From Candidatus Uhrbacteria bacterium (GTDB lineage Bacteria; Patescibacteriota; Patescibacteriia; UBA9934; GWF2-40-263), in contig JACPHU010000013.1 of NCBI GenBank assembly GCA_016188495.1, forward strand, positions 5,498 to 69,497: 64,000 nucleotides of DNA, read 5' to 3'. Under the pieces are notes generated by a model that was given only the letters and a program-made list of their open reading frames with translations, did not search any database and was not told the DNA's origin. Of this stretch, positions 2,600 through 57,872 are shown piece by piece; position 1 is the first letter of the stretch, and each line of letters begins with the position of its first letter. The translations under genes and the position numbers were made by a program.

Positions 2600-2808
2600 T
2601 CACGCTTCATATTCCCTGAGCGGAGGTTCGTTCGACGAACCGGAGTCGAAGGGCTCATATGCAGCCTTCGACCGTTCGACAAGCTCACGACAGACAGGCT
2701 CAGGCAATAATACGCAGCCGTTCGATCTACTCACGACAGGCAAGCTGACGGGGTATTTACTCTGAGGGAATAAAAAACCCTCCAATGGTTTGAGATGTTT
2801 TGGAAGGT
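2600..2808 (-). repeat. GC-rich structured spacer with hairpins and direct repeats. Probably a degenerate relative of the palindromic element family at 9945 and 30431.
   Basis: There is a perfect hairpin GGTTCGT-TCG-ACGAACC at 2625-2641. Direct repeats ccgttcga...ctcacgacag...caggc occur at about 2670-2705 and 2713-2750. The motif gacggggtat is duplicated. Segments GCCCtTCGACTCCG and TCTGTCGT are shared with elements A and B. Confidence 0.45.
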
Positions 2809-3501
2809 TTATCGTAGGATGGGAGAAAAACGAGTGATCGAACAATTGTCGAGGAATTGTTGCTCTTCTGGTACGAGTGTATGACCGTCATGGATTTTGG
2901 AGAATAACCAGACGATCTGATAGGCAACTTCTGGTTCTTTTGCGAAGAACACTTGTTGGCCGAGTCGTGGGTTGTCCTTGAGCAAATGAAACATCTCACA
3001 CACGACCAGGATTTTTTTCGCTAATTCCTCCGAAGGATCAAGTAAAACCAAAGGAGGGAGAAATAGCTTCTTGTTTTTGTAGATGTTAATGCTGTGTAGA
3101 GCGGTTATCGCCTCTAGAAATGTGCCCATCCTGCCAGGAAGGCAGATGTAGGCAAAAGATCCGTCAATCAGCTTTTGAATTTTTTTGGACAATGTAGAGA
3201 CGATCTGTATGTTTCCGATCTCCATCGGTCCCCACATGTGCATTGCGTAACCGATAGGTTCCAGATTTTTTCGTTTCTGTTTTTGTGCCAGCTCGTACGC
3301 GGTTAGAGTTGCCACTTCCATTGTTCCAGCTTTTTGGCCTCCTGTTGCGATTCGAAAGCCGTTTTCTGTCAGACGGACCGTTATTTCTTTGGCAAGCACA
3401 CATGCTTCGCCCGTCTCATCAACAGCTGTGCCAAAGAGAGAAACAGTTTTCGGTTTTTTGCTCACGAGTTCTCCTGTTTTAGACAAATTGATAAAGGACA
3501 A
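2809..3501 (-). CDS. LOG-family (TIGR00730-like) Rossmann-fold nucleotide-binding or nucleotide N-glycosidase-like protein, divergent
   Basis: ICLPGRMGTFLEAITA matches the LOG PGGxGTxEE motif. TGGQKAGTM matches the GGGxxGxM region. Size is 230 aa. Confidence 0.55.
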   Translation of the reverse strand: MSFINLSKTGELVSKKPKTVSLFGTAVDETGEACVLAKEITVRLTENGFRIATGGQKAGTMEVATLTAYELAQKQKRKNLEPIGYAMHMWGPMEIGNIQIVSTLSKKIQKLIDGSFAYICLPGRMGTFLEAITALHSINIYKNKKLFLPPLVLLDPSEELAKKILVVCEMFHLLKDNPRLGQQVFFAKEPEVAYQIVWLFSKIHDGHTLVPEEQQFLDNCSITRFSPILR

Positions 3502-3547
3502 ACGACGGACGGTTAAAACTAGAGTTGTTTCCCCGATTTGTCAATGG

Positions 3548-3585
3548 TTTTCGGATTCGTTTTCGGATTCGTGTTTTCGGATTCG
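3548..3585. repeat. Three direct repeats of TTTTCGGATTCG upstream of the LOG gene
   Basis: Copies lie at 3548-3559, 3560-3571 and 3574-3585. They sit 47-85 nt upstream of the LOG ATG and just upstream of a possible TTGACA -35 box at 3539-3544 on the minus strand. Confidence 0.5.
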
Positions 3586-3607
3586 AAGCCTTGAGGAGTT
3601 CATGTGT

Positions 3608-4456
3608 TCATCGGGTTTTTATTTTTTGCAATTCGTAGGCTTTTAGAATATTCACTAAAAGCATCGCCACGGTCATAGGGCCTACGCCCCCTGGAACGGG
3701 CGTGATGGCGCTGATGATGTCTTTTACCGACTCCAAATCGACATCGCCCACAAGACCTTCTGGTGTTCGGGTGGTTCCTACATCGATCAAGATAGCATCT
3801 GGTTTCACAAAATCTTTTGTGATGAGTCCAGGAATGCCTTCTGCGACAATCAATAGATCGGCTTGTGTTGTTTTGTCTGCAAGATGTTTATCTTCTGCTT
3901 GAGTCACAGTTGTTTGAACACCTGATTCTTTTAAGAGAATTTCAAGAGGCTCAGCAAACAGGGGGGAGGACACGATCGTTGCATGGGGAGGAAGGGGTCC
4001 TGTTCCAACGGCTTCACGAATAAGGCGCATCACACCCAGGGCTACGGCAGAAATTAAAGATGGTTGGTGAGCTCTGAGTTTTTCGAGGTTAGCAGGATGA
4101 AATCCATCAACATCTTTGAGAGGATTGATGGCAAAAATAACGTTATTTGCATTTTGAGAGGGGAGAGGCAACTGCACTAAAATGCCATGGATATCATTTC
4201 GTCTATTAAGTTCTTGAATGTTATTGATGAGCGTTTGTTCGGGTTCCGTGGCCGGATACAAAAATAATTCAAAATGAATTCCTACCTCTTCGCAAGCCTT
4301 TCGTTTCAGCTGGACATAGATGTGCGATGCAGGATCATCTCCAACTAAAAGAATGGCCAGTCCAGGGGTGGAAGGCATCGTTTGGACACGGGCTTGGATT
4401 TTTTTTTGAATGCGCGCGGCAAGCGCTTTCCCGTTTAAAATATGAGACATAGACAA
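3608..4456 (-). CDS. folD: Bifunctional methylenetetrahydrofolate dehydrogenase/cyclohydrolase
   Basis: The N-terminus ILNGKALAARIQKKIQARV and overall FolD architecture are present, with VGDDPASHIYV. Confidence 0.9.
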   Translation of the reverse strand: MSMSHILNGKALAARIQKKIQARVQTMPSTPGLAILLVGDDPASHIYVQLKRKACEEVGIHFELFLYPATEPEQTLINNIQELNRRNDIHGILVQLPLPSQNANNVIFAINPLKDVDGFHPANLEKLRAHQPSLISAVALGVMRLIREAVGTGPLPPHATIVSSPLFAEPLEILLKESGVQTTVTQAEDKHLADKTTQADLLIVAEGIPGLITKDFVKPDAILIDVGTTRTPEGLVGDVDLESVKDIISAITPVPGGVGPMTVAMLLVNILKAYELQKIKTR

Positions 4457-4467
4457 CAGTAAAGATT

Positions 4468-4495
4468 ATTTTACACGAAAACCCTTTTTTTTCAA
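4468..4495 (-). promoter_or_regulatory. Sigma70-like promoter for folD with a very short leader
   Basis: On the minus strand, TTGAAA (4495-4490), a 16-nt spacer, then TAAAAT (4473-4468). The -10 box ends only about 11 nt before the folD ATG. Confidence 0.35.
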
Positions 4496-4527
4496 TTAAA
4501 AAATGCATCGTAAGATGCATCGTAGAG

Positions 4528-5484
4528 TTAGAATTTCGCCGAAATTCGTTGGCAGATACACCAACTATTTAGTTCTGTGAGTCTGGACTCATGGATGGTC
4601 AGGACTTCGTATGGCTCCTCCACGATCGTTTTGGGGACTACTGGATCGAACCGTTCAATGAGCGGACTGGCTCCATGCGGTCGATAGGGAACGATGCGCA
4701 GATGGACATATCCCAGCCGCTGGTTCATCCCAATAACGGGGGTCACGTCCCATGGTGTTTGAGTTTTCATGGCTGTGACAGTTCCGCCGACCTCGCCCTT
4801 CCACAGACGCGCCATTGAGATTCCGATAGAACCATCAGCGGTTTCCGCGTCTTTGAACAACCCGGTATGGACCATATCCTGCACAATTTTAGAGCGTCTG
4901 TGCAGCATGCTTCGCAGAAGGAGATATTGTTCTCGGAGAGGGGTTTCGGGATTTGCTACCATCGGTTGAACACGTTCCTGACGCAGCAAAAGACGATGGG
5001 TTTTGCTGGAGCCCGGACGGAAATAATACATCTCCTGGCTATTGACGTCGCCGATACACACAGCAACGACTTTCCCATTTACCACAAGTGCCGACATGGT
5101 TCCAATGCCATGAGACTGTTTTCGATCCAGTGCTGAAGTTCCATCGTAAGGATCGAAGACGAAGTAAATATCCATTCCCTCAAGTGCACAAGGAATATTA
5201 AGTTTGTGTTCCTCTCCGATGAGACCGAATCCGAAAGGTTTTACAAACTGTTCTGTTATGAGTTTCTGATACATGTCAGAAGCCGCAATATCTGCCTTGC
5301 TTACCTTATCGGGACTCCCGTCCTCCTTGAGTCCCTTTATCGTAAATTCGTTATGAAACTGGAATGCCGGAAATCCCATGATGACACGCCTTGCGCATTC
5401 CTTCATCAGGTTACCAATCTGAGAAGCCATCATCTCAACAAAGGCTTCCCCACCCATTACTTCCACGAGCCTTTTTGCATTCAT
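4528..5484 (-). CDS. Inositol monophosphatase-family phosphatase (SuhB/HisN-like)
   Basis: The metal-binding motif FDPYDGT (DPxDGT) is present, along with EEH and the IMPase fold pattern. The start is reset to the ATG at 5484 (MNAKRLVEV), which has an AAGGAG Shine-Dalgarno sequence 9 nt upstream. The ORF-track start at 5541 reads through that RBS. Confidence 0.75.
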   Translation of the reverse strand: MNAKRLVEVMGGEAFVEMMASQIGNLMKECARRVIMGFPAFQFHNEFTIKGLKEDGSPDKVSKADIAASDMYQKLITEQFVKPFGFGLIGEEHKLNIPCALEGMDIYFVFDPYDGTSALDRKQSHGIGTMSALVVNGKVVAVCIGDVNSQEMYYFRPGSSKTHRLLLRQERVQPMVANPETPLREQYLLLRSMLHRRSKIVQDMVHTGLFKDAETADGSIGISMARLWKGEVGGTVTAMKTQTPWDVTPVIGMNQRLGYVHLRIVPYRPHGASPLIERFDPVVPKTIVEEPYEVLTIHESRLTELNSWCICQRISAKF

Positions 5485-5561
5485 GAGTATTCGCTCCTTA
5501 TTTAGGGGGTTTTCAAGTAATGTGGAGACCAAAGATAGCATGTGATATGCTTTTTGTCAAT

Positions 5562-6158
5562 ATGAAACGACTTATTTTTGCTACGCACAACACAGGAAAA
5601 GTGAGAGAAATGCAGCAGCTTCTTTCTGATATGGATATTCATGTTCTTAGTGCTGAACAAGCGGGTATTTTGGAAGACGTAGAAGAGGATGGAGAGACCT
5701 TTGAACAAAATGCTTTAAAGAAAGCCCGATTTGTTGCCAGCAAAAGTCAGGAATGGTCTGTGGGTGATGACTCGGGTATTACCATTGATGCTCTGGGAGG
5801 ACGTCCAGGTATTTTTACGGCTCGTTGGGCTGGCGAAGGGGCAAGCGATGAACAATTGATTGATCATACGCTTGATCAGTTGAAGGAAGTACAAGAAAGG
5901 GATCGAGGAGCGTCTTTTTATTCTGTCATCGCACTAGTGTCTCCTCAAGGAGAAGAGTATCTTTTTGAGGGTGTTGTTGAAGGAGATGTTACTCTTGAGC
6001 CTCGTGGACAGCATCTTCCTAAGCTTCCTTATGATGTGATTTTTCAACCAAAGGGTTTTGAACAAACGTTTGGAGAGATGTCAGAACAGGAGAAAAATCA
6101 GTTAAGCCTTCGAGGAAGAGCGTTTGAAAAATTGAAACTTTTTTTGAGGACAAAATGA
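5562..6158 (+). CDS. rdgB: Non-canonical purine NTP pyrophosphatase (RdgB/Ham1)
   Basis: MKRLIFATHNTGKVREMQQLL matches the RdgB N-terminus. Length is about 198 aa. The start was trimmed from the ORF-track start at 5520 to the ATG at 5562. Confidence 0.85.
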   Translation: MKRLIFATHNTGKVREMQQLLSDMDIHVLSAEQAGILEDVEEDGETFEQNALKKARFVASKSQEWSVGDDSGITIDALGGRPGIFTARWAGEGASDEQLIDHTLDQLKEVQERDRGASFYSVIALVSPQGEEYLFEGVVEGDVTLEPRGQHLPKLPYDVIFQPKGFEQTFGEMSEQEKNQLSLRGRAFEKLKLFLRTK

Positions 6159-6162
6159 ATAT

Positions 6163-6190
6163 AAAAAAGAGAGCATAAGCTCTCTTTTTT
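6163..6190. terminator. Bidirectional intrinsic terminator between convergent rdgB and glyA
   Basis: Stem AAGAGAGC/GCTCTCTT with loop ATAA, flanked by an A-run on one side and a T-run on the other. Confidence 0.65.
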
Positions 6191-6194
6191 CTAT

Positions 6195-7436
6195 TTAGTA
6201 ATGAAGATCGGGATAAAGAGGGAAGTGGCTAGTGAGGTTTTTCACCTCTTCTGCGATTGCGATAAGTTTTGTGTTGTCATCCCAGTGAGTAATCGCTTCG
6301 TCGATCCAACGTCCGATTTGTTTCATTTCCTCCTCTTTCATTCCGCGGGTGGTCAGAGCCGGAGTTCCTAAACGGATACCGGATGGGTCCATCGGGGATC
6401 TTGTATCGTCTGGAATCATGTTTTTATTTACGGTGATTCCTGCTTTATCCAGAGCTGTTTCTGCTTGTTGACCCGTGACTCCTTTGGGGGTTACGTCTAC
6501 TAGCAAAAGATGGTTATCCGTTCCTCCGAACATCAGTTTATATCCTTTTTCTTGGAAAATCCCTTCAAGCACTTTTGCATTTTTCTTTATTTGTTGTGCG
6601 TATGTTTTGAATTCTGGGAGAGCGGCTTCTTTAAACGCTACGGCTTTGGCCGCAATGACGTTTTCGTGTGGACCTCCCTGAAGGCCTGGGAAGACAGCTT
6701 TATCAACGGCTTTTTTATGTTCTTCCTTGCACATGATCATTCCGCCTCGTGGACCTCGGAGCGTTTTGTGAGTGGTTGTTGAAACAAGATCAAACAGGGG
6801 AACCGGATTGTTCATTTCTCCTGCGGCGATCAGTCCTGCAATATGGGCGATATCCGCCATGGTTCGCGCACCTACTTCATCAGCAATCTTTTTGATGCGT
6901 GCATAATCGATCTCTCGAGAATACCCAGAATAACCAACCAAGATTAAGTGCGGTTTATGGGTATGGGCCATTTTTTCAATCTCATCGTAATCAATGATTC
7001 CCTCTGGAGTTGTCTTGTATCGGATAAAATTCCAGACTCCGGCGATAAACGTGACGGGATGGCCGTGAGTCAGGTGGCCTCCATGAGAAAGATCCATTCC
7101 GAGAATCGTTCCTCCGGGAGGAACCAGAGCCACATAAGAGGCAAGGTTCGCTGGGGCTCCCGAGAGCGGTTGGACATTGACATGTTCGGCGCCAAAGAGG
7201 TGTTTTGCTCGATCTATCGCCAGTTGTTCCACCACATCAATCTCCTGGCATCCGCCGTAATAGCGTTTGCCGGGGTAACCTTCGGAGTATTTATTTGTGG
7301 CGATGGATCCAAGCGCTTCCAACACCGCAGAGGAAACAAAATTTTCAGAAGGGATCATCTCAAGGCCGTTTTGTTGTCGTACAAGTTCTCGATTCAGAGC
7401 AGAAGAAAGATCCGGGTCAAAAGAAGAAAGTGTCAT
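6195..7436 (-). CDS. glyA: Serine hydroxymethyltransferase
   Basis: EMIPSENFVS, the PLP-lysine region and full-length GlyA (413 aa). Confidence 0.95.
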   Translation of the reverse strand: MTLSSFDPDLSSALNRELVRQQNGLEMIPSENFVSSAVLEALGSIATNKYSEGYPGKRYYGGCQEIDVVEQLAIDRAKHLFGAEHVNVQPLSGAPANLASYVALVPPGGTILGMDLSHGGHLTHGHPVTFIAGVWNFIRYKTTPEGIIDYDEIEKMAHTHKPHLILVGYSGYSREIDYARIKKIADEVGARTMADIAHIAGLIAAGEMNNPVPLFDLVSTTTHKTLRGPRGGMIMCKEEHKKAVDKAVFPGLQGGPHENVIAAKAVAFKEAALPEFKTYAQQIKKNAKVLEGIFQEKGYKLMFGGTDNHLLLVDVTPKGVTGQQAETALDKAGITVNKNMIPDDTRSPMDPSGIRLGTPALTTRGMKEEEMKQIGRWIDEAITHWDDNTKLIAIAEEVKNLTSHFPLYPDLHY

Positions 7437-7616
7437 ATCAGTTGTAAAACCAAAACATGAGTTAAAAAGGGTTCATGTGTGTCTTACAAGAAGATTATGA
7501 CATAGGTTTGATGTTAGACTCTTTTACTATGTTCGTATTCTACGAGACCTGAGCTGGATTGACAATCTGTCCAAAATAACGATTGAATTGAACTTCTTAT
7601 GATAAAATCATCTTGT

Positions 7617-8987
7617 ATGTTTCAATTTTATCGCCATGTTCATTTTGTGGGAATTGGAGGCATTGGGATGTCTGCCCTTGCAAAGTGGTTTATCCATGAA
7701 GGGATCAGGGTGAGTGGTTCTGATGTGTCTGCCAATACTATAACGGAGGATCTTCGTAAACGCGGAGTCAGATTTTTTTCAGGTCATGCCGTTTCCAATA
7801 TCGCCCAAGATGTTGATTTGCTTATCTACACCTCAGCGATTCCACAAGACAATACTGAACGACAGTATGCTCAAGAACGCGGTATTCCTCAGAAATCTTA
7901 TTTTGAAATGCTCGGAGAAATTTCTAAATCTTTTTCGACCATTGTCGTGACAGGCACCAACGGGAAAAGTACGACCACGGCCATGTTGGGACTTTTATTG
8001 GAAGCAGCCGGGTATGATCCAACCGTTCTTGTCGGCTCGCTTGTTCCGGGATTTCCCGATGGAAATCTTCGTTTGGGGAAAGGACGTTTTTTTGTGGTCG
8101 AAGGATGTGAATATCGCGCCAACATGATGAATCTGGAACCCGAGATGATCGTCCTTACGAATATCGAAGAAGACCATTTAGATTATTACCGTGACCTGGC
8201 TCATATTCAGGAGACGTTCCAGGCATTCGTACAAAAACTTCAAGGAAAGGGACTCGTGGTTTATAACGCCATGGATTCAGGAACCAAGCCTTTGCATTTT
8301 TTTCGAAGTGTTGGATATGGGTTGGAAAAAGAAACGGACTATGTTGCGCGACAGAGACGAGTTTCACAAGGCCTTCAACAAGTCAGCATCTATCGTCATG
8401 AGGCGCAGGAGATTTCTATGGGGGATTTAACATTGCAAATTCCAGGGACGTTTAATGTCATGAACGCCCTTGCCGCGATTTCTGCGGCCATGGAAATAGG
8501 AATTCCTTTTGAAACCTGTCGTCGAGTTTTGGAACAGTTCAAAGGCATTTGGCGTCGTTTTGAAAGGTTAGGTGTGTGGAAGGGGGCAGATATTCTGTCT
8601 GATTACGGCCATCATCCAAGTGCGATTGCTCAGACGATTGAGGCTGCGAGAGAATTTTTTCCAGGTCGAAGAATCATTTTGTGTTATCAACCTCATCAGC
8701 ATGACAGAACGAAAAAATTGTTTGATGAGTTTGTTCAGACGTTAGCCCTTGCCGACCATGCGATCGTCGTAGAGATTTATGATGTGGCAGGACGCAACGA
8801 AGTGCATGATGTGAGTTCGAAGGATCTCGTGTTGGCGATCAAGAAAAAAGATTCTGCAAAGGATATCGTCTATGCCGAAGATTTTATGGCAGCAGAACAA
8901 TTATTGCGGGATCATATTCAACCCAATGATGTTCTTCTCATGATGGGTGCTGGAGATATTGATTCGCTAGCAAGAAAACTCGTATGA
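7617..8987 (+). CDS. murC: UDP-N-acetylmuramate--L-alanine ligase
   Basis: HFVGIGGIGMSALA and the Mur ligase P-loop GTNGKSTT. The start is set at ATG 7617 (MFQFYRH) because the ORF-track start at 7599 would include an extended -10-like sequence TGATAAAAT. Confidence 0.85.
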   Translation: MFQFYRHVHFVGIGGIGMSALAKWFIHEGIRVSGSDVSANTITEDLRKRGVRFFSGHAVSNIAQDVDLLIYTSAIPQDNTERQYAQERGIPQKSYFEMLGEISKSFSTIVVTGTNGKSTTTAMLGLLLEAAGYDPTVLVGSLVPGFPDGNLRLGKGRFFVVEGCEYRANMMNLEPEMIVLTNIEEDHLDYYRDLAHIQETFQAFVQKLQGKGLVVYNAMDSGTKPLHFFRSVGYGLEKETDYVARQRRVSQGLQQVSIYRHEAQEISMGDLTLQIPGTFNVMNALAAISAAMEIGIPFETCRRVLEQFKGIWRRFERLGVWKGADILSDYGHHPSAIAQTIEAAREFFPGRRIILCYQPHQHDRTKKLFDEFVQTLALADHAIVVEIYDVAGRNEVHDVSSKDLVLAIKKKDSAKDIVYAEDFMAAEQLLRDHIQPNDVLLMMGAGDIDSLARKLV

Positions 8988-9946
8988 CTATTTCTCAACA
9001 GTTAACAAACATCGTCGGCAATCGAATGACAGAGAATGAACCCATGTCCAAGCATACGAATTTTCGTATTGGCGGTCCGGCAAAGTGGTTTGTCGAAGTA
9101 AGATCTCTTTCTGAACTTCAGGAAGTGTTGAACGTGGTTAAAAATCATCAACTCTCTTTTTTTGTGCTGGGAGGCGGATCCAATATTCTCGTGAGCGATC
9201 AGGGGTTTGACGGCGTTGTTGTGAAGATGGCGATGCGCACTTATGAAATTCAAGGAAATCGTGTCAGATCCGATGCTGGGGTTCTTGCGAGCGCTTTGGC
9301 ACGCGCGACGGCAACACACGGACTAAAAGGACTTGCGTGGGCAATTTCACTTCCTGGAACTGTTGGCGGGGGTGTGCGAGGGAACGCGGGTTGTTTTGGT
9401 GGCGAGATGAAAGATTGCCTTGTTAGTGCGGTGGTGCTTCGTGACGGAGAATTGATTGAACTCAAAAAAGAGGATTTAGCTTTTGGGTATCGTGAGTCTA
9501 TTATTAAGCACAGTCGCGATATTATCGTGTCTGCAACATTTGAGTTACAAGAAGGAGATCCCGTAGAATTGAAAATGGAATTAGACGATAAGCTTATGAA
9601 GCGTAAGAAGTCTCAACCATTGGACGCAGGATCTGCAGGATGTCTGTTTAAAAATTATGAGATAAAAAATGACGAAGAGGTGCAACGTCTTTCCTCTAAA
9701 CTCGATATACCTTCAGAGATGTGGTCAGCCCGGCGGATTTCCGCCGGCTGGCTCATCGACAATCTGGATCTTAAAGGTATGCAGATTGGTGGAGCAAAAA
9801 TCAGTGGACAACACGGAAATTTTGTCGTTAATACAGGTTCTGCTACGGCGGATGACGTAGTTCAATTAGTTGCCTTGGTAAAAACCCGTGCTCGCAATGA
9901 ATATGGTATTGTGTTGAAGGAGGAGGTTCAATACGTTGGCTTCTAA
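8984..9946 (+). CDS. murB: UDP-N-acetylenolpyruvoylglucosamine reductase
   Basis: NFRIGGPAKWF, VLGGGSNIL and the MurB C-terminal region. Its start overlaps the murC stop by 4 nt. Confidence 0.9.
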   Translation: MTISQQLTNIVGNRMTENEPMSKHTNFRIGGPAKWFVEVRSLSELQEVLNVVKNHQLSFFVLGGGSNILVSDQGFDGVVVKMAMRTYEIQGNRVRSDAGVLASALARATATHGLKGLAWAISLPGTVGGGVRGNAGCFGGEMKDCLVSAVVLRDGELIELKKEDLAFGYRESIIKHSRDIIVSATFELQEGDPVELKMELDDKLMKRKKSQPLDAGSAGCLFKNYEIKNDEEVQRLSSKLDIPSEMWSARRISAGWLIDNLDLKGMQIGGAKISGQHGNFVVNTGSATADDVVQLVALVKTRARNEYGIVLKEEVQYVGF

Positions 9947-10074
9947 AATTTTTCAAAAAATCGCGATCTTGCGGCTTACGGGCGCCCGTCGACTCCGCTC
10001 TCCCTATTGTGAATAGGGTTCGCGCAGCTCGACAGCCCGTGCACCGCAATCTCATCGATTTTTTGAAAAATTTT
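9945..10074 (+). repeat. Palindromic intercistronic element, copy A. About 130 nt, with 19-bp perfect terminal inverted repeats.
   Basis: AAAATTTTTCAAAAAATCG at 9945-9963 pairs perfectly with 10056-10074. An internal hairpin CCCTAT-TGTGA-ATAGGG lies at 10002-10018. Core segments CGATCTTGC, TCGACTC and GCAATCTCATCGA are shared with copy B in the same transcriptional orientation. Confidence 0.7.
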
Positions 10075-10116
10075 AATTAAATAAGAATTCTGAAAAGTGA
10101 TAATTTATTAGTGTTT

Positions 10117-10464: not shown

Positions 10465-10530
10465 AGAAACCTCGTCGAGTTTTCTAGAGGTTTCTAAAAT
10501 CAAACGACGGGGGAAATCCCCGTCGTTTGA
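10465..10530 (+). other. Two strong hairpins between hpf and secA, with no U-tract after either
   Basis: AGAAACCTC...GAGGTTTCT at 10465-10495, and TCAAACGACGGGG-GAAAT-CCCCGTCGTTTGA, a 13-bp stem, at 10500-10530. Confidence 0.5.
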
Positions 10531-10564
10531 TTAATTCATCAAAAAAGAGGATAATCATGCCCGT

Positions 10565-14636: not shown

Positions 14637-15260
14637 ATGTTCGAACACTCACGTGAAAATCATGAAATATCTCATCGTATTGATTGGAATACCGTTCTTA
14701 GACAATGGCAGGAGGGCGAGGAAAAACAATGGGAGCAACTTATTCGCGAACGCGGATTTTCTTCTTGGTGGGAGTGGCGTAAAAGTTATGTCAAAGAGTT
14801 AGATCTTGAACAACGTGAATGGCGTGAAGAGATAATAATGAAACCGCATGATGTCATTCCTGATCTGGTATTAGGGGGATTCCGTGGATGGAAGCAGTAC
14901 CGCCCTGCTGATAAGGACCTTGTTACGTTTAGAGAAATGGTTTCCCCTGTCGTTTCTGGAGAAGTTTCCTATGCCCAAACTTCTCGTGTGGACATGAGAA
15001 CAAATTCAAGAGTTATGAGTTTAGTTGGAAATCTTACGGATACCTCTCTTCTTGTTTTACGATCTTCTGATTTTTCTGTTGTTCTTGATGGAACACATCG
15101 TTGCGCGGCGACAGCTATCGAAGTCGTAGATACTTTTTTACAGCCTTCTTCGTTTGTTGCCCGATTGCGTACATGCCAATTTTCTGAATCAGAAAGAGAA
15201 TTACTCGAAGCCTTTGCTCGAGATCGTGAAATAGTGATTAAGAAAGAGAATAAAGCTTAA
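14637..15260 (+). CDS. Hypothetical protein with a Trp-rich N-terminus
   Basis: A 207-aa ORF in a same-strand run of genes. No recognised motif. Confidence 0.45.
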   Translation: MFEHSRENHEISHRIDWNTVLRQWQEGEEKQWEQLIRERGFSSWWEWRKSYVKELDLEQREWREEIIMKPHDVIPDLVLGGFRGWKQYRPADKDLVTFREMVSPVVSGEVSYAQTSRVDMRTNSRVMSLVGNLTDTSLLVLRSSDFSVVLDGTHRCAATAIEVVDTFLQPSSFVARLRTCQFSESERELLEAFARDREIVIKKENKA

Positions 15261-19072: not shown

Positions 19073-19085
19073 ACAGTCCTCTTTC

Positions 19086-19114
19086 AAAAAACTGGGTTGC
19101 AACCCAGTTTTTTG
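19086..19114 (+). terminator. Intrinsic terminator after secF
   Basis: AAAAAACTGGGTTGC/AACCCAGTTTTTT, a perfect stem followed by a T-run. Confidence 0.7.
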
Positions 19115-19133
19115 ATATACTAGAAACTAACGT

Positions 19134-20696
19134 ATGCTTTCACTTTTTGCTATTCCTATTGTAAGCCAGGCGACAGGGTTTGCCTCAGGAACTTCTTCTT
19201 ATTTTTTACAACCTCTGGATGCTATTCTTTTTGATATTCTGATTTGGTTTGGTTGGATTCCTATCGTGATGACGTTAGGTTGGGGTTTTACACAGATGTG
19301 GTTAGATTACCGACGAGGACTTTATTCTGCAAAGTTGAAGTATATTCTTTTGGCGGTCGATGTTCCGACAATGACAGAACAAACACCAAAAGCTCTCGAG
19401 AATTTTTTTGCGTCTATTTACGGAACCAAATCTTCTATTACATGGAAGGAAAAGTGGATTGGAGGAAAGTTACATCCGGTTTTTTCTTTCGAAATTATTT
19501 CGACAGAAGGGTATATTCGTTTTCTTATTCGTACACAGGCACGTTTTCGAGATGTGATGGAAGCCGGTATTTATGCTCATTATCCAGACGCAGAAATTTC
19601 TGAAGTGGAAGATTACGCCAAATCATTTCCTAACGAATTTCCAAATGATGAGTATGAAATGTGGGGTGGGGAAATGACGTTTGATAAGCCTTCCATGTAC
19701 CCAATCCGAACCTATATTGATTTTGAGGATCGGATGACGCAAGAAATCAAAGATCCTTTAGGACTCACGTTGGAACAGTTGGCTAAAATGCGGCCAGGAG
19801 AACATTTTTGGATTCAAATTTTGGTTCAGCCTTCCAGTAACGATTGGGCAAAGGCGAGTGTCAAGCATGTTCGTAAAATTTACGGAGATGAAGATGCTCC
19901 TAAAAAGAGTCTTATTGCTTCAACATTTGAATCTGTTATCGCTTGGCCGACCGGTTTATTGAATGAAACGTTAGGAATCGATTTAAGCGGTTTATTGTCA
20001 TCCGGAACTCAGGTAAAGGAAGTAGATCCTTGGAAGACGTTTAAAATTACTCTTCCGCAAAAAGATGAAGCCGAGGCTATTTTGCGCAAAGCAACAAAAG
20101 TCGGTTATGGAGTGAAACTTCGTATTCTGTATGTTGCGCGAAAAAGCGTTTTTCAAAAAGTCGAACGAACAGGAATGGTGAAGGGAATTTTAAATCAGTA
20201 CAGCCATTTGAATTTTAATAAATTCGCTCTGTATATTCCTCAGGTTCCTAAGGATGATTATTTTTGGATGCGTTGGGAATATACCCAAAAACAACACCGC
20301 TTAATGACCGGTTATCAGAAACGAAGCTGGGGAATCGGTGCAAATCCTATCTGGTTGAATGTTGAAGAACTGGCAACTCTTTGGCACTTCCCAACCATTA
20401 CGATGAAAGCTCCGCTTGTGAAGAAGAGTGAGTCTAAACGCGGAGAGCCACCTGTTGGACTTCCTATCACCTTTTTAGAAGACACACTTCCAGGATTTAT
20501 TCCTCCTAAGACAGAGGAACAAAAACAGAATTATTTTCCTGAATTTGAAGAAGAATCGGAGAAAAAATTAGAACCAGAAAGCTCTTCAGAATCGACAGAT
20601 CCGTTTGAAGATCTTGTTCAACCAGTTCTTCCTCGTCAAACGTTTAAAAAATCTTTAGAAGATGATGATGTTGTTCCTCCGAATCTTCCTGTTTAG
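19134..20696 (+). CDS. Membrane-anchored hypothetical protein (520 aa). It has N-terminal TM helices, a large soluble domain and an acidic C-terminus.
   Basis: TM segments occur at about 1-60 aa. The motif NVEELATLWHFP is present. The 3' end is 29 nt upstream of the following VirD4-like ATPase gene. Confidence 0.6.
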   Translation: MLSLFAIPIVSQATGFASGTSSYFLQPLDAILFDILIWFGWIPIVMTLGWGFTQMWLDYRRGLYSAKLKYILLAVDVPTMTEQTPKALENFFASIYGTKSSITWKEKWIGGKLHPVFSFEIISTEGYIRFLIRTQARFRDVMEAGIYAHYPDAEISEVEDYAKSFPNEFPNDEYEMWGGEMTFDKPSMYPIRTYIDFEDRMTQEIKDPLGLTLEQLAKMRPGEHFWIQILVQPSSNDWAKASVKHVRKIYGDEDAPKKSLIASTFESVIAWPTGLLNETLGIDLSGLLSSGTQVKEVDPWKTFKITLPQKDEAEAILRKATKVGYGVKLRILYVARKSVFQKVERTGMVKGILNQYSHLNFNKFALYIPQVPKDDYFWMRWEYTQKQHRLMTGYQKRSWGIGANPIWLNVEELATLWHFPTITMKAPLVKKSESKRGEPPVGLPITFLEDTLPGFIPPKTEEQKQNYFPEFEEESEKKLEPESSSESTDPFEDLVQPVLPRQTFKKSLEDDDVVPPNLPV

Positions 20697-20725: not shown

Positions 20726-22885
20726 ATGTCTTACAATCACGACCATGAAAACGAAGTAAATTACTTCGCCAAGACCAATTTCCGAAATCAAATGACAAAA
20801 TTCGGAATTAAGACGGATGATCGTCGCCGACATGTCTATGTGATCGGAAAGACAGGTATGGGAAAAACGACCCTCCTGGAGAATTTTATTTTATCTGATA
20901 TTTACGCTGGGCACGGATGCTGTTATGTAGATCCTCATGGAGACACTGCTGAAAAATTGATCAATTACATTCCAAGTTGGAGACTCAATGACGTGGTGTA
21001 TTTCAATCCCGCGGACATGGATTATCCTGTTGGATTTAATATTCTTGAAGCGGTAAGCGAACGTCATAAACATCTTGTCGCCTCAGGAATGATGGGGGTC
21101 TTTCAAAAAATATGGGAAAACATGTGGTCTTCACGCATGGAGTATATTTTAAATAACACCATTCTTGCTCTCTTGGATAATCCTGGACAGACACTGCTTG
21201 GAATTAACCGAATGCTTTCTGACGCTGATTTTCGAAAACGTATTATCGGAAACGTCAAAGATCCTGTGGTTCGTCAGTTTTGGTTAAAGGAGTTTGCTTC
21301 TTATAACGATAAGTATGCCCAGGAAGCCGTAGCTCCTATTCAAAATAAGATCGGACAATTCCTTTCAGCGACCGTTATTAGAAATATCGTTGCCCAAGTC
21401 AAGTCTTCTATTAATGTTCGGGAAATCATGGATAGCGAGAAAATTTTTATTATCAATCTTTCGAAAGGACGTATCGGTGAAGATAATTCTCGGTTATTGG
21501 GAGGACTTCTTATTACGAAAATTCAGTTATCAGCGATGGAACGTGTTGATACGCCAGAAAAAGAACGAAAAGATTTTTACTTATACGTCGACGAATTTCA
21601 AAATTTTGCCGTTGAATCTTTCGCGAGTATTTTATCTGAGGCTCGTAAGTACCGTTTGTGTCTAACCATGGCGCATCAATATATTGCCCAATTAACAGAA
21701 GAGGTGCGCGATGCGGTGTTTGGAAACGTTGGTACTATCATTACGTTTCGTGTTGGTTCCCCCGACGCTGTTTTTATGGAGGCAGAGTTCATGCCACGGT
21801 TTACTCCAGAAGACATTATTAATCTTCCAAAGTTTAACGTTTATCTCAAACTGCTTATTGAAGGGGTTACGAGTCAGCCTTTTTCTGCCATGACGCTTTC
21901 GCCTATTGCTCAAGTGACCCATTCCGAAGAAAAAGTCATCAAGATTTCTCGTGAGCGTTATGCCAAACCTAGAGCTGAAATCGAAGAGAAGATTCTGCAA
22001 TGGAGCGGTATGGAGAATACGGATATGGAGACGCTTTTGAAAGAGGCTGAACAGAAGAAAAAAGACCAGAAAGAAAGTAAGAAACCACGATTTGAATATA
22101 AGTGTTCTCGTTGCGGTAAAGATGTTGTATTACCTGTTGAACTCGATCGATCTCGACCTATTTATTGTGATGACTGTATTGCTATTGTTCGGGATGAGCG
22201 CAAAACTGGTAAAAAACCTTTTGTTAAACCACCTTTTCCTCCTAAGCCTTCGGAAGGACAATCGGTTGAAAAGCTTCCTGAGGAGCCTTCTATCACGTTA
22301 AGCACGCTGCGAAAGCCTTCTATTTCGGCTCCGGTTTCGGTTCCTAAATCCGTCGTCGTGCCTTCAAGAACACCTGCACCTGCAACACCTGCACCTGCAA
22401 CACCTGCACCTGCAACACCTGCACCTGCAACACCTGCACCTGCAACACCTGCACCTGCAACACCTGCACCTGCAACACCTGCACCTGCAACACCTGCACC
22501 TGCACAACGTTCTTCAGTGGCAAGTCATTCATACACGTGTTCTGATTGTACACGCACGTTTAGCGCCGGAGTGAAACTTGATCCTAGTCGTTCGTTGTAC
22601 TGCCAAGAGTGTTTAGAAAAAATTCGCGCGAAGCGTAAAGAACATCCTGTTGAAAAAAAACAAGAAGCCAATCACCCAAGGCTTGTTACCAGTTCGGTGG
22701 TCCAAAGTAGCTTATCGCAACAGACCGATGACGTTACAAAAAAGAAACGTAAACGTAAAAGAAAAAATAAACAGACAGAGACTGTGCCTTCTGTTCATAC
22801 AGAGTCGATGTCTCCTAAAAAACCTGAACCTCCTCAAGAAAAATTGGGAACGCTAAAAACAGGACAAACCGTTCATTTTGATTAA
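20726..22885 (+). CDS. TraD/VirD4/FtsK-HerA-superfamily P-loop ATPase (type IV secretion coupling-protein-like). It has a C-terminal double zinc ribbon and a (TPAPA)9 linker.
   Basis: Walker A is VIGKTGMGKTT. DPHGD follows. Walker B is LYVDEFQNF. LTMAHQ is also present. The C-terminus has CSRCGK...RPIYCDDC and CSDCTR...RSLYCQEC, both YacG-like CxxC...YCxxC ribbons, separated by nine TPAPA repeats. Confidence 0.7.
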   Translation: MSYNHDHENEVNYFAKTNFRNQMTKFGIKTDDRRRHVYVIGKTGMGKTTLLENFILSDIYAGHGCCYVDPHGDTAEKLINYIPSWRLNDVVYFNPADMDYPVGFNILEAVSERHKHLVASGMMGVFQKIWENMWSSRMEYILNNTILALLDNPGQTLLGINRMLSDADFRKRIIGNVKDPVVRQFWLKEFASYNDKYAQEAVAPIQNKIGQFLSATVIRNIVAQVKSSINVREIMDSEKIFIINLSKGRIGEDNSRLLGGLLITKIQLSAMERVDTPEKERKDFYLYVDEFQNFAVESFASILSEARKYRLCLTMAHQYIAQLTEEVRDAVFGNVGTIITFRVGSPDAVFMEAEFMPRFTPEDIINLPKFNVYLKLLIEGVTSQPFSAMTLSPIAQVTHSEEKVIKISRERYAKPRAEIEEKILQWSGMENTDMETLLKEAEQKKKDQKESKKPRFEYKCSRCGKDVVLPVELDRSRPIYCDDCIAIVRDERKTGKKPFVKPPFPPKPSEGQSVEKLPEEPSITLSTLRKPSISAPVSVPKSVVVPSRTPAPATPAPATPAPATPAPATPAPATPAPATPAPATPAPATPAPAQRSSVASHSYTCSDCTRTFSAGVKLDPSRSLYCQECLEKIRAKRKEHPVEKKQEANHPRLVTSSVVQSSLSQQTDDVTKKKRKRKRKNKQTETVPSVHTESMSPKKPEPPQEKLGTLKTGQTVHFD
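22370..22504 (+). repeat. Perfect 9 x 15-nt tandem repeat (ACACCTGCACCTGCA) encoding (TPAPA)9
   Basis: It is read in frame inside the ATPase gene. It also creates the spurious antisense ORF at 22344-22553. Confidence 0.9.
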
Positions 22886-23695: not shown

Positions 23696-25024
23696 ATGAA
23701 CCCCTACGAAATTCGAGATTCCATTCATAAACATATTGGGTTTAATGCATTTGAACGGGGGATTATCGATCACCCGTTTTTTCAACGATTGCGTTTTATC
23801 TCGCAATTAGGATTTATAGAAGCGTATGTTTATCCGGGAGCCTGTCATGATCGCTTTACCCACGCACTTGGCGCCATGCATGTCGCCGGCCGATTATGGG
23901 GCAGAATAATCGCGTCTACAGATCTTTTTACAAACAGATTATCCAAAGAGGAACTGGAGGCGCTAAGACAACGTGTGCGTTTGGCCGGCTTATTACACGA
24001 CATTGGACATGGTCCGTTTTCTCATGCTTCCGAAGTCATTTTTCCTTCGTTGACGTCATTGCCTCTTGATTGGTCTTGGTGGTATGAAATGCCTGTTAGT
24101 CGCCAAGCCGTTCACGAAGATTATAGCGTTTTGTTAATCCAAACGCTTGCACAGGAGCATCTTTTGGAACAAACGATGGCTCAAGATATTTGTTCTTTAA
24201 TCCATTCCGGTGTTCAGCCATCCTCCGCATTAAGGACGATAGAAAAAAAGATTCCGAGTTTGCAAAAAGTGCTTAAGGGCTTGATTTCAGGAGAGGTGGA
24301 TTGCGATCGCATGGATTATCTCTTGCGAGACGGGTATTACTGCGGAGTCGCTTACGGCCAGTACGATATAGACTGGTTGATTTCTTCCATGGGGGTGCAG
24401 GAGTATCGAGGGGAATTGGTTTTTACTCTTTCAGAAAACGGTGTCCGGGCGTTTGAGGATTTTCTTTTGGCTCGCTATCACATGATCGACCAGGTGTATT
24501 GCCATAAAACCAAGATGGGACTTACGCACTATTTGGAACAAGCTATTTTGCTGGGTGAGATAAGCTTGAACATTCCAACAGATCCGTATGCGTACGCAGC
24601 TCTTCATGATGGAGCTGTGATTGAACAATTATTTGAGGCCAGCAAAAATGAAACGAATTATTATTCTTTTCATTTAATGCACCGTCTGCCTGCCAAGAGG
24701 ATTTTGCGTTTGCATGAAAAAGTTGAACCTAAGGATCAACAGACATTAGAAAAATTACAGCACATCTGTGATCGTTCAGGTATCCGTTGGTTCACACATT
24801 CCATTGAAAAGGAATTAACTCATTTGGGTGAGGATATAAAGAAAACTCAGGAAATTTTTGTAAAGAAACATCGTGTAAGTGGACACGAATTGGTTCCCAT
24901 TTTCGAATATTCGGATTTAGTGAAAAAATACAATGAAAAGCTTCAAATCACCGATTTTTTCGTTTATAGGGAAGATCTCGTTCTTTTTGAGGAACAGTTA
25001 AAAAATAATCCTGATATCTCTTGA
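23696..25024 (+). CDS. HD-domain dNTP triphosphohydrolase-like protein (SAMHD1/Dgt-related)
   Basis: HDRFTHALGAMHVAGRL...LAGLLHDIGHGPFSH...DCDRMDYLLRDGYYCGVAYG. This is the H..RF.HSLGV / HDxGHGPFSH / DxDRxDYxxRD pattern of the dNTPase family. Confidence 0.75.
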   Translation: MNPYEIRDSIHKHIGFNAFERGIIDHPFFQRLRFISQLGFIEAYVYPGACHDRFTHALGAMHVAGRLWGRIIASTDLFTNRLSKEELEALRQRVRLAGLLHDIGHGPFSHASEVIFPSLTSLPLDWSWWYEMPVSRQAVHEDYSVLLIQTLAQEHLLEQTMAQDICSLIHSGVQPSSALRTIEKKIPSLQKVLKGLISGEVDCDRMDYLLRDGYYCGVAYGQYDIDWLISSMGVQEYRGELVFTLSENGVRAFEDFLLARYHMIDQVYCHKTKMGLTHYLEQAILLGEISLNIPTDPYAYAALHDGAVIEQLFEASKNETNYYSFHLMHRLPAKRILRLHEKVEPKDQQTLEKLQHICDRSGIRWFTHSIEKELTHLGEDIKKTQEIFVKKHRVSGHELVPIFEYSDLVKKYNEKLQITDFFVYREDLVLFEEQLKNNPDIS

Positions 25025-27163: not shown

Positions 27164-27778
27164 TCAATAAGTCAATGCATTCGTCCATTGGTAAAAGTCT
27201 GCAGAATCTCCCGCCATCAAATTGACATCAAGGGACTCGTGGGAGACAGGAGGTGTTTCGTGGATTGAATAAGGAGCCGACTGTGTGAAACGTTCCTTTG
27301 TTTGGCGTAAATGCGTTTCTACAGAATTCATAAGCGGGATCACATGGATTGTTTCAAGAAAATCGTAATTGATGAAGGAAGCCATTGCGTCAGAAAGGAC
27401 ATGCTCTGTGTTGTTTGTTTTAATTATTAAAGGAGTTTGTGCGGATGTTTTTGCCAAGATCCTTCCTTTGATGAGTCGGATGATCAGTTCGTCTTTGTAT
27501 AGTCGTTCTAATTCGATAGAAGTATTTTTTGAAAGCCAGATGATTGTCTGAGCTTGATCTGCTTGTGCAAGCTCTTCACCTATGTTTAGTTGAATAAAAC
27601 CCTCCACTGTTTCAACTAAAGATCCTCGCTGTAAACCTTCTCCAAATCCATACCCAGCGTCTTCACCAGCTCCAGCGGTGATACGAACGGGGAGTTCTTT
27701 AGGAAGTGAAAAACGTTGGACAATGAGTAATCCAACGACAAAGCAGAATAATATGACTGTAAGGATTTTGAGAGACAT
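27164..27778 (-). CDS. Hypothetical N-terminally membrane-anchored protein
   Basis: A signal or anchor sequence MSLKILTVILFCFVVGLLIV. No recognised catalytic motif. Confidence 0.45.
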   Translation of the reverse strand: MSLKILTVILFCFVVGLLIVQRFSLPKELPVRITAGAGEDAGYGFGEGLQRGSLVETVEGFIQLNIGEELAQADQAQTIIWLSKNTSIELERLYKDELIIRLIKGRILAKTSAQTPLIIKTNNTEHVLSDAMASFINYDFLETIHVIPLMNSVETHLRQTKERFTQSAPYSIHETPPVSHESLDVNLMAGDSADFYQWTNALTY

Positions 27779-30430: not shown

Positions 30431-30559
30431 AGGAATTGTCGTCTTATTCGATGAGATTGCCTTGAATGGGGCGATCGACGACAGAGCCGTACTCACAGTA
30501 CGGTGACGAGTCGATGGGGCCCCATGAAAGGCAAGATCGCGAATGAGACGACAATTCCT
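30431..30559 (-). repeat. Palindromic intercistronic element, copy B. 129 nt, with 14-bp perfect terminal inverted repeats. It lies between the rumA-like stop and the era start.
   Basis: AGGAATTGTCGTCT at 30431-30444 pairs perfectly with 30546-30559. An internal hairpin CCGTAC-TCACA-GTACGG lies at 30487-30503; its loop reads TGTGA on the transcribed strand. The core is shared with copy A in the same orientation relative to transcription. Confidence 0.7.
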
Positions 30560-39164: not shown

Positions 39165-39218
39165 AAAATACTTAAAAATTAGATTAAAAAACACTTTTGG
39201 TTATCCACGGAAGCATTC

Positions 39219-39247
39219 TTGACAATAGATCTGTTGATGAGTACAAT
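39219..39247 (+). promoter_or_regulatory. Sigma70 promoter of the infA-rpmJ-rpsM-rpsK-rpsD-rpoA-rplQ operon
   Basis: TTGACA (39219-39224), a 17-nt spacer, then TACAAT (39242-39247). Confidence 0.6.
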
Positions 39248-57863: not shown

Positions 57864-57872
57864 AAATAGAAA

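Follow-up and report, generated by a model that had tools for sequence, protein, structure and literature searches.

Position and structure of elements A and B

The stretch of DNA analysed here, called the window, comprises 64,000 nucleotides (nt) of the genome of a Candidatus Uhrbacteria bacterium (contig JACPHU010000013.1, positions 5,498 to 69,497) and contains two homologous palindromic elements, A and B, each of which is located between two co-directional genes. Element A separates murB from hpf, the gene of a ribosome hibernation factor, while element B lies between the gene of an RNA uracil-5-methyltransferase and era. The strand reading TCGCGATCTTGC...GCAATCTCATCGA is referred to as the F orientation, its complement as R. 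The T of the murB TAA stop codon (murB open reading frame (ORF), 8984-9946) is the first base of the inverted repeat of A, and the in-frame ATG of hpf is found at 10117, 42 nt past the end of the element. Element B begins 1-2 nt past the stop codon of the methyltransferase gene, and the start of era follows 21 nt downstream of it. The elements are composed of the following parts, the invariant sequences being those of the family described below:

9944-10075, + strand: element A between its two feet (F orientation; sense strand of the murB and hpf mRNAs), delimited by inverted repeat, fold and covariance model
9945-9960, + strand: 5′ outer arm of A, AAAATTTTTCAAAAAA, AT-only and the perfect complement of 10059-10074
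9961-9972, + strand: 5′ half of the basal motif of A, TCG-C-GA-TC-TTGC, in which CGATCT is the family-wide invariant part
10002-10018, + strand: apical hairpin of A, CCCTAT-TGTGA-ATAGGG, recognised by sequence and fold
10046-10058, + strand: 3′ half of the basal motif of A, GCAA-TC-TC-AT-CGA, in which ATCTCATC is the family-wide invariant part
10059-10074, + strand: 3′ outer arm of A, TTTTTTGAAAAATTTT, defined by inverted-repeat pairing with the 5′ arm
30431-30559, - strand: element B (F orientation, the mRNA-sense strand of the methyltransferase gene and era), delimited by inverted repeat and covariance model
30431-30447, - strand: 3′ outer arm of B in F orientation, reading AGGAATTGTCGTCTTAT on the + strand
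30448-30460, - strand: 3′ half of the basal motif of B, GCAATCTCATCGA on the - strand
30487-30503, - strand: apical hairpin of B, CCGTAC-TGTGA-GTACGG, recognised by sequence and fold
30531-30542, - strand: 5′ half of the basal motif of B, TCGCGATCTTGC on the - strand
30543-30559, - strand: 5′ outer arm of B in F orientation, reading ATGAGACGACAATTCCT on the + strand

The arms of A (9944-9963 and 10056-10075) are 20 nt long and complementary at all 20 positions. Those of B (30431-30450 and 30540-30559) have the same length and are 95% complementary (19/20), the outer 14 bp being free of mismatches. Within the 64 kb, TCGCGATCTTGC and GCAATCTCATCGA each have exactly two exact matches, one in A on the + strand and one in B on the - strand, and the covariance model described below scored A with 119.9 bits and B with 111.8 bits. 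The stems of the two apical hairpins differ by compensatory changes around the common TGTGA loop. According to fold prediction, each element forms one long imperfect hairpin of about 130 nt, with minimum free energies (MFE) of -60 to -82 kcal/mol compared to -30 to -35 kcal/mol for dinucleotide shuffles (z scores of -8.8 to -13.9; none of 200 shuffles was as stable). For A, the z score was -8.8 on the + strand and -10.3 on the - strand. A 70-aa antisense frame (9843-10055), for which no support was found, is the only ORF overlapping A, and a covariance-model scan of the window yielded no third copy besides A and B.

An earlier note on this DNA, made from the letters alone, had already described the coordinates and inverted repeats of A and B, the location of A between the murB stop codon and a point 42 nt before hpf, the perfect 14-bp closing repeat of B, the blocks common to both elements and the TGTGA loop with compensatory stem changes. 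All of these descriptions were borne out, the common blocks being homologous by exact motif scan and covariance model. The note had also named different folds of A and B as an argument against its reading, and both turned out to form the same kind of long hairpin.

Size, distribution and anatomy of the family

Further copies were sought with the motif pattern TCGCGATCTTGC-N70-95-GCAATCTCATCGA in one genome per species, in groundwater metagenomes and in viral contigs, and with a covariance model built from 54 copies. Taken together, the two approaches revealed about 95 copies, which reside in 14 genome bins, nearly all of Candidatus Uhrbacteria, and in groundwater metagenomes. The motif scan alone detected 51 loci in 14 assemblies, nearly all labelled Candidatus Uhrbacteria or Patescibacteria, and 31 loci in the groundwater metagenomes, while no copy was found in viral contigs. 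The covariance model added more divergent members to this set. The earlier note had proposed a covariance-model scan of related bins, and relatives of A and B did turn up in other Uhrbacteria bins. The bin nzgw366 stands out with 16 exact motif matches and up to 18 copies in a genome of about 1 Mb, and two other bins contain nine exact matches each. The known range of the family is so far limited to Candidatus Uhrbacteria and close relatives within the Patescibacteria. The MurB protein of the window is 100% identical to an NCBI protein labelled Candidatus Uhrbacteria. The housekeeping genes of the window are 65-72% identical at the DNA level to those of other Uhrbacteria loci.

Most elements have a length of about 128-135 bp, variants with an extra stem-loop reach about 168 bp. 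The commonest copy consists of the 5′ arm GAGACCTCTGCAAAAC, a core of 95-99 nt (TCGCGATCTTGC...GCAATCTCATCGA) and the 3′ arm GTTTTGCAGAGGTCTC; the 5′ outer arm of A, AAAATTTTTCAAAAAA, is unrelated in sequence to this consensus arm. Across the divergent subfamilies, only CGATCT (5′ side) and ATCTCATC (3′ side) are left of the invariant part. Read inwards, the fold begins with 16-19 bp of outer stem, an internal loop that is asymmetric, a stem of 6-7 bp and a small loop. These are followed by a GGGG/CCCC stem whose CCC bulge is conserved, another one or two stems and the apical hairpin. In some copies, the bulge junction bears an additional, optional hairpin of about 33 nt. The arms (16-20 nt) are perfectly complementary in 20 of 55 copies and show at most two mismatches in 48 of the 55.

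Three copies of one genome that otherwise differ from each other carry the extra stem-loop, CCGCCCGAACGAACG[T/C]TCGACGGTCGGGCGG, at one and the same internal junction (L085, approximately 4045-4078; L015, 2556-2721 and 5932-6098). One of them is the ortholog of A, which itself lacks the stem-loop. Analogous hairpins are present in L031 (1176-1339) and L059 (1174-1327), and a related stem with a different loop was seen in a divergent subfamily of another bin. Either the stem-loop is an optional domain inherited from an ancestor, or copies have passed it to one another as a module; its presence in different copies of one genome suggests local exchange. Decayed members of the family exist as well: L026 retains a solitary left arm and the start of the core (6672-6695, TGAATTACGAAACTCGTGATCT), and the copy in L079 (2391-2478) is truncated at its 5′ end and devoid of the left arm. 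Where L024 has a divergent family member, L004 (4060-4152) contains a different sequence of about 90 nt with an inverted repeat of its own (GTTGTAGGTGAGA...TCTCCTACAAAC), which may represent another repeat family.

Evidence for mobility

Many copies are flanked by short direct repeats. With the boundary set strictly at 16 nt from the core, flush 4-mer repeats were detected at 16 of 55 copies, compared to a mean of 0.56 and a maximum of 4 when the right flanks were permuted among the copies. If the boundaries were allowed to slip by 1 nt, 28 of the 55 copies had a direct repeat (3.2 expected), and in a non-redundant set a repeat of 4-6 nt accompanied 26 of 78 copies. Since the fifth base usually matches too, the target-site duplication comprises 4-5 bp. 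Its sequence varies from copy to copy.

In locus L020, one copy is inserted into the apical stem of another and has CCTA on both sides. Moreover, occupied and empty versions of the same junction were found. The gene pair harbouring an element in L017 is separated by a spacer of only 6 nt in L028, L004 and L024 differ by a clean 131-bp indel, and the junction occupied in L035 is empty in L050. A fourth example concerns the window itself:

39165-39236, no strand assigned: empty site in the spacer after the alanyl-tRNA synthetase gene (37269-39164); the orthologous position is occupied in an Uhrbacteria bin (L018)

Finally, one 96-nt core recurs unchanged at four loci of bin nzgw366. With duplications, nesting, empty sites and identical cores at hand, it is likely that A and B are members of a dispersed family of mobile, non-autonomous and non-coding palindromic elements resembling MITEs, i.e. 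miniature inverted-repeat transposable elements, and REPINs, the hairpin-forming doublets of repetitive extragenic palindromic (REP) sequences. The earlier note had considered a structured RNA or a REP/MITE-like mobile element; the mobile element stood, while a structured RNA is not retained as the primary identity. Like MITEs, the elements are small and non-coding, possess terminal inverted repeats and a duplication and occur in multiple copies with insertion polymorphism, but a parent insertion sequence (IS) was not found in the DNA sampled around the copies and in the window. With REPINs, they share the hairpin with compensatory changes, but not the lack of a duplication, the conserved flank or, in the neighbourhood of the copies, the association with a REP-associated tyrosine transposase (RAYT).

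In the searchable literature, no description was found of this family or of any MITE in bacteria of the Candidate Phyla Radiation (CPR), and a 2024 review of prokaryotic MITEs does not mention Patescibacteria (PMC10969869). The family is therefore regarded as previously undescribed and placed among the miniature non-autonomous palindromic mobile elements.

In three genomes, a family member is positioned directly upstream of the trigger-factor gene (L025, 2370-2499; L056, 5742-5876; L079, 4349-4483). The arms of these copies differ and one copy has the opposite orientation, which hints at several separate insertions into this spacer and not at inheritance.

Conservation of pairing and strand asymmetry

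In the model alignment, 95.2% of the cells form standard pairs compared to 79.5% in shuffled alignments. Double changes were observed in 28 of 37 pairs, a level that none of 500 shuffles attained, and pairing dropped to 32-43% when the partner was slid by one to three columns. The covariation that the earlier note had read from preserved pairing in A and B thus holds for the whole family. For the outer arms, at least 15 unrelated sequences are known, each with a complementary partner, among them GAGACCTCTGCAAAAC, GAGGCTGTCCCAAAAC, GGGTCTGTTCCCGAAT, GGGGTTATCTCTAAAT, GAAGTCGCCCCGAAAC, TTGAATTACGAAAC and GAAATTTCTCTAAAAC as well as AAAATTTTTCAAAAAA and GGAATTGTCGTCTCAT of the window. Four arm types coexist in bin DeMMO3_34, and one divergent type has a 5-bp duplication. 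The apical stem is represented by 35 different sequence pairs across the family. It can be inferred from these data that the conserved feature is the fold and not the sequence.

Two origins of the arms were considered and rejected. A derivation from the target is contradicted by the unusual arm TTGAATTACGAAAC, which is present at four unrelated loci; arms therefore travel with the element instead of being copied from the target. Insertion of the core into a pre-existing palindrome, for instance a terminator, does not fit either, as the loci contain no 'empty' arm palindromes and the duplications lie outside the arms.

The two strands of the element are not equivalent. In 80 of 80 copies the R strand is predicted to fold more stably than F, the mean difference being 11.7 kcal/mol. 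The MFE folds contain 263 G·U pairs on R and 76 on F (182 versus 76 outside the invariant motif), counts that do not represent independent events, and such an excess is expected if pairing is selected on R. On this strand, the invariant loop consists of a single bulged A, followed by U·G, G-C and A-U pairs and a tandem G·A/A·G, while F has C·A and pyrimidine-pyrimidine mismatches at the same positions. Likewise, R has GA-rich inner loops where those of F are rich in pyrimidines. Because arms and tips are free in sequence yet complementary, all stems covary and R holds the wobble pairs and purine loops, the form that is recognised may be one folded single strand, R, either as single-stranded DNA or possibly as RNA; the odds for and against this view are about even.

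By eye, the R loop was also compared with known RNA motifs. A hammerhead core was rejected since R reads CGAUGAG and not CUGAUGAG and a GAAA partner is missing. A kink-turn was discarded as well, the two to three Watson-Crick or wobble pairs between the tandem G·A and the bulge amounting to a non-canonical architecture.

The elements might instead be ordinary MITEs of a DDE-type IS, moved as double strands by cut and paste. The hairpin would then be incidental and the 'covariation' would reflect subfamilies derived from different ISs. This explanation accounts for the 16-nt terminal inverted repeats, the fixed 4-5 bp length of the duplications, the small size and the multiple copies, and it agrees with the commonest arm (GAGACC..TGCAAAAC), which shows only moderate variation within one genome. 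It also agrees with the mismatches in the arms of recent copies, which are uncompensated and comprise both transition types (about 14-16 of the G·U type and 22 of the A·C type, read on F) and look like ordinary decay. Even so, it is unlikely. A sequence-specific transposase would not accept all of the 15 or more unrelated arms with their unconserved tips, several of which occur in one bin of about 1 Mb and of which even a divergent type is still duplicated at its target. By contrast, an enzyme that ignores the arms and binds only the inner motif leaves their complementarity unexplained. Moreover, the inner stems covary along their whole length, the asymmetry between R and F would be meaningless for double-stranded ends, and the roughly 620 kb searched around the copies contain no IS with such ends.

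The family can also be compared with the Correia/NEMIS elements of Neisseria, ERIC of enterobacteria and RUP of pneumococcus. These elements also have 100-150 bp, terminal inverted repeats and a duplication, lie between genes or within operons in both orientations and are co-transcribed into hairpin RNA. Their duplication is a TA dinucleotide. They reveal no sequence similarity to the Uhrbacteria family, and their repeats are conserved in sequence and match an IS, whereas the Uhrbacteria arms are free, the tips unconserved, the whole length covaries and a parent IS was not found in the sampled DNA.

A second way of moving such a hairpin would be a RAYT, i.e. a Y1 HUH transposase similar to that of IS200/IS605, acting on single-stranded DNA. 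IS200/IS605 and RAYT chemistry entails insertion beside a fixed tetranucleotide and is not known to create a duplication. REPINs are, like the Uhrbacteria elements, miniature, non-coding, multi-copy hairpins of about 100 nt in which conserved blocks are split by sequence conserved only in its pairing and compensatory changes are common (PMC3116915). In both families one strand is clearly the structured one, and the Uhrbacteria elements additionally contain conserved extrahelical or mismatched bases near the hairpin foot and often GTAG/CTAC in the apical stem. Nevertheless, this mode of transposition is improbable for the Uhrbacteria family, which has target-site duplications of variable sequence and neither a conserved flanking tetranucleotide nor a RAYT-like gene adjoining any copy. 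Its members form one hairpin of 130 nt and not two short REP hairpins, and what they conserve is not a terminal REP but an asymmetric loop reached only after 16-19 bp of variable outer stem. Moreover, A and B point in opposite directions within a single replichore, as judged from the monotonic cumulative GC skew across the window. A further difference is the host, a CPR bacterium. Patescibacteria have genomes of about 1 Mb that are usually described as poor in mobile DNA. The IS200/IS605-derived palindrome-associated elements (PATEs) resemble the family in their strong strand asymmetry and in the recognition, which for the Uhrbacteria elements is presumed, of a folded strand containing extrahelical or mismatched bases, but they possess separate left and right subterminal hairpins and a specific short target and generate no duplication.

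The attC sites of integrons are likewise recognised as folded single strands through structure and extrahelical bases. Their architecture combines a conserved structure with variable sequence and asymmetric unpaired bases, and in these features as well as in size (60-140 nt) and in the imperfect palindrome the Uhrbacteria elements are reminiscent of them. An attC-like recombination site is nevertheless so improbable that it can be set aside, being effectively refuted by the genomic context. The copies are dispersed among housekeeping genes in both orientations and do not form one-directional cassette arrays, no integrase is encoded near them and target-site duplications are present. Furthermore, the R″/R′ core sites (RYYYAAC/GTTRRRY) and the corresponding L sites are absent from the arms, whose consensus GCAAAAC/GTTTTGC does not fit.

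History of the window copies

A and B differ in age. In the closest database relative, a sister species whose MurB and Era proteins are 88% and 96% identical to those of the window, the methyltransferase/era junction is devoid of an element, and the same applies to two more distant relatives (L091, L092 and L093 are precise empty sites). The sister reads ...CTTAAA directly followed by TAATCTGA..., the window ...CTTAAGTAA, then the insert (AAGGAATT...AATTCC) and again TAATCTGA..., with a TAA stop codon on both sides of the insert. Element B was therefore inserted after the split of the two species, at the TAA stop codon of the upstream gene. At the murB/hpf junction, on the other hand, the sister possesses an orthologous copy (L085) in the same position and orientation, and A is therefore older than the split. 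The junction is empty, with spacers of 13-41 nt, in three more distant relatives (L087, L088 and L089).

Between A and its ortholog, two substitutions and a 2-nt indel distinguish the arms, and all of these changes are mirrored so that both copies pair perfectly. The 25 nt of the basal motif are identical, and the core is about 94% identical compared to 59% at fourfold-degenerate sites of murB. Complementarity of the arms has been kept in place either by selection or by templated correction. Template switching in quasipalindromes is a known mutational process (PMC7202029). The conservation of the unpaired loop in the ortholog, though, argues that correction alone does not account for everything. 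That A is conserved because of gene conversion among paralogs is unsupported for the core, the L085 ortholog resembling A more closely than its own paralogs.

Contigs corresponding to window positions 2731-9990 (L052) and 5994-9990 (L053) are contained in two public short-read assemblies that were made independently from this organism. Both stop at position 9990, 46 nt into A, and the element therefore breaks assemblies.

Orientation, position relative to genes and possible host function

In both A and B, the same strand (F) is mRNA-sense to co-directional flanking genes, as the earlier note had observed. Its suggestion that this shared orientation points to a single-strand function was not upheld by the family, in which, according to simple and crude ORF-based gene calls, F is on the mRNA strand in 29 and R in 16 of 45 co-directional gene pairs (two-sided binomial p ~0.07, our own calculation), while seven copies lie between convergent and six between divergent genes. 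The strand asymmetry is real but opposite to the proposed direction, the better-folding strand R being antisense to the flanking genes of both window copies. The slight preponderance of F could simply reflect a better tolerance of mRNAs for the weaker hairpin of this strand.

Neither the promoter nor the terminator scan of A and B yielded anything above the shuffled background. The test for an intrinsic terminator, i.e. a short GC-rich stem followed by a U tract, was negative at both elements, and the 3′ flanks are arbitrary across the family. Scanned against Rfam 15 at the gathering threshold, both strands of the whole window were free of matches. Around A, even E <= 10 returned nothing except a chance fragment of a long non-coding RNA with 13 bits. 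A raiA motif upstream of hpf was rejected, since Rfam did not detect it and copy B lies upstream of era.

These results bear on the possibility that the family is a structured RNA selected at each locus, acting in cis or expressed independently, be it a 3′-end stabiliser, a processing site, a small RNA or a riboswitch-like element. Strong covariation in every stem, an optional side hairpin at a fixed junction as in many structured RNAs and the excess of wobble pairs on one strand would suit such an RNA. So would the location of copies inside operons directly after stop codons, as well as the conservation of A and its ortholog far above neutral sites with mirrored arm changes. It is, nonetheless, highly improbable. 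No Rfam family matches, promoter or terminator consensus sequences do not accompany the copies, and the neighbouring genes have no common function. The better-folding strand is antisense in both window copies and constitutes the mRNA strand in only 16 of the 45 co-directional contexts. The duplications, the nested copy and the empty orthologous sites reveal a distribution produced by transposition.

Among 59 stop codons facing an element, 29 are placed between -3 and +6 nt relative to the hairpin foot, and the stop codon is often partly built by the duplication (TGA|GACC, TAG|AGACC). A target preference could be the reason. On the other hand, as the spacers in these genomes comprise only 2-40 nt, purifying selection alone could suffice to explain the pattern.

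In either orientation, the 3′ arm of the consensus element, GTTTTGCAGAGGTCTC, contains a Shine-Dalgarno-like AGAGG/AAAGG at a distance of 8-9 nt from the end of the element; the window copies lack it. The next gene in L017 has a homology-verified start codon located only 4 nt past the element (3′ arm at 5199-5214), and the ribosome-binding site of this gene must therefore be inside the hairpin arm.

It is conceivable, if doubtful, that the elements, compatible with a mobile origin, have been exapted as intercistronic modules serving as RNase III sites, mRNA-end hairpins or devices of translational coupling. In favour of this proposal, the consensus element has a stop codon abutting its 5′ arm and the Shine-Dalgarno-like AGAGG in its 3′ arm, nearly half of the facing stop codons are adjacent to the foot, and the only Shine-Dalgarno-like sequence for the downstream gene of L017 is within the 3′ arm. 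At murB/hpf, the outer stem has stayed perfect while drifting to AT-only and the core is conserved far beyond neutral sites. A precedent exists in the Correia elements, which are cleaved by RNase III in mRNAs (PMC2649163). However, close relatives lack the element at the same junctions without visible compensation, both orientations occur, and the window copies have no Shine-Dalgarno-like arm, hpf and era starting 42 and 21 nt downstream. In addition, stop-codon adjacency would also be left by purifying selection alone, and the maintenance of the arms can be explained by quasipalindrome template switching (PMC7202029).

Mobilisation of the family

The search for a mobilising partner extended over about 620 kb flanking the copies and over the window. 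Clustering of first 413 and then 580 flanking proteins disclosed no recurrent gene family beside the copies, and the genes between closely spaced copies are all housekeeping genes. No unpaired element ends or half-sites bracketing a gene were found in the loci examined, no parent IS with matching terminal repeats was present in the approximately 620 kb around the copies or in the window, and no conserved flanking tetranucleotide or other flank motif emerged across the family. Among the window ORFs of at least 150 aa with a family match in Pfam or NCBIfam, none has a transposase, recombinase or reverse-transcriptase domain; eleven ORFs of this size had no match at the thresholds used. Within the neighbourhoods, a RAYT (Y1 HUH transposase) gene adjoins none of the copies. 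The mobilising partner may be encoded elsewhere in the genomes.

Several observations weigh against the assignment of A and B to a mobile family and against recognition of a folded strand. A mobilising enzyme was not identified in the approximately 620 kb flanking the copies or in the window. The target-site duplications which the earlier note had suggested looking for are present across the family (16 of 55 copies under the strict boundary), whereas at the window copies only a repeated TAA is seen and a clean 4-5 bp duplication is absent. The covariation counts are inflated by shared descent within subfamilies, and part of the covariation could be due to non-selective templated correction between the arms. 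In the orthologous pair L062/L066, one mirrored 1-nt indel is accompanied by one or two unmirrored changes. The strong conservation of A in place is unexpected for a purely selfish fossil and leaves room for a host function or gene conversion. The crude gene calls affect the distances to genes as well as the orientations. Finally, the family does not fit cleanly to either known mechanism, as it combines a duplication with termini that are not conserved. None of the single-strand systems that recognise hairpins (IS200/IS605, RAYT, attC) is known to make a target-site duplication. Transposases that produce duplications by staggered cuts normally need conserved termini.

On the assumption that A and B are mobile elements, the following course of events can be envisaged. 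A trans-acting enzyme would read the basal loop of the folded R strand with its bulged A, U·G pair and tandem G·A and would cut at the foot of the outer stem. Insertions would survive only in the very short spacers next to stop codons of these compact genomes, and an inserted copy would be co-transcribed, giving rise to a long hairpin in the mRNA. With its perfect outer stem of about 19 bp, this hairpin might be a natural substrate of RNase III, as reported for Correia elements, which would be an effect and not the reason for the existence of the element. Both window copies are located inside apparent operons and have an F hairpin of about -60 to -67 kcal/mol whose foot is a perfect helix of 14-20 bp. 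Correia elements are cleaved by RNase III at their paired repeats (PMC2649163, PMC10969869), and by analogy processing at the murB/hpf and methyltransferase/era junctions is plausible.

Tentatively, it can be speculated that the family is moved by a new mechanism in which the folded R strand is read via the asymmetric loop, a distance of about 16-19 bp is measured to the foot and a staggered duplication of 4-5 bp is made, while retained copies are co-opted as structural modules inside operons. That the unusual properties of the family reflect a new mobilisation mechanism or a co-option by the host is, in the same vein, possible without being probable. If it is true that the enzyme both reads structure and makes duplications, the family would link two styles of transposition which are now held separate. 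About 95 naturally occurring versions of a single fold, whose invariant loop is defined, provide a substrate for identifying the enzyme. The copies also illustrate that a small selfish element can invade spacers of 2-40 nt inside housekeeping operons, often on the stop codon itself. From a practical point of view, it is important that the element breaks assemblies and may be mistaken for a structured RNA gene in covariation screens.

Other features of the window

The hpf/secA spacer (10465-10564) contains a perfect GC-rich inverted repeat of 15 bp, AATCAAACGACGGGG...CCCCGTCGTTTGATT (hairpin at 10498-10532). The spacer is 100% identical to that of the sister species over 66 aligned nt, far above synonymous sites, and the repeat was missed by the terminator scan. 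Two other perfect palindromes, located at 57864-57908 (19-nt arms, 7-nt loop) and 19084-19115 (16-nt arms, no loop), are unrelated to the family. Amid housekeeping genes, a 719-aa ORF (20726-22885) encodes a TrwB/VirD4-type coupling-protein domain (PF10412, E = 1e-11) together with a CxxC-x17-CxxC domain. Ten ORFs of 200-520 aa had no Pfam match at E <= 1e-10, and the eight of them within the first 29 kb also had no NCBIfam match (E <= 1e-8). Such family-less ORFs are typical of CPR genomes. Their positions are:

563-1480: ORF without Pfam match
1477-2688: ORF without Pfam match
2809-3501: ORF without Pfam match
14637-15260: ORF without Pfam match
19134-20696: ORF without Pfam match
23696-25024: ORF without Pfam match
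27164-27778: ORF without Pfam match
28089-29054: ORF without Pfam match
48862-49560: ORF without Pfam match
53727-55148: ORF without Pfam match

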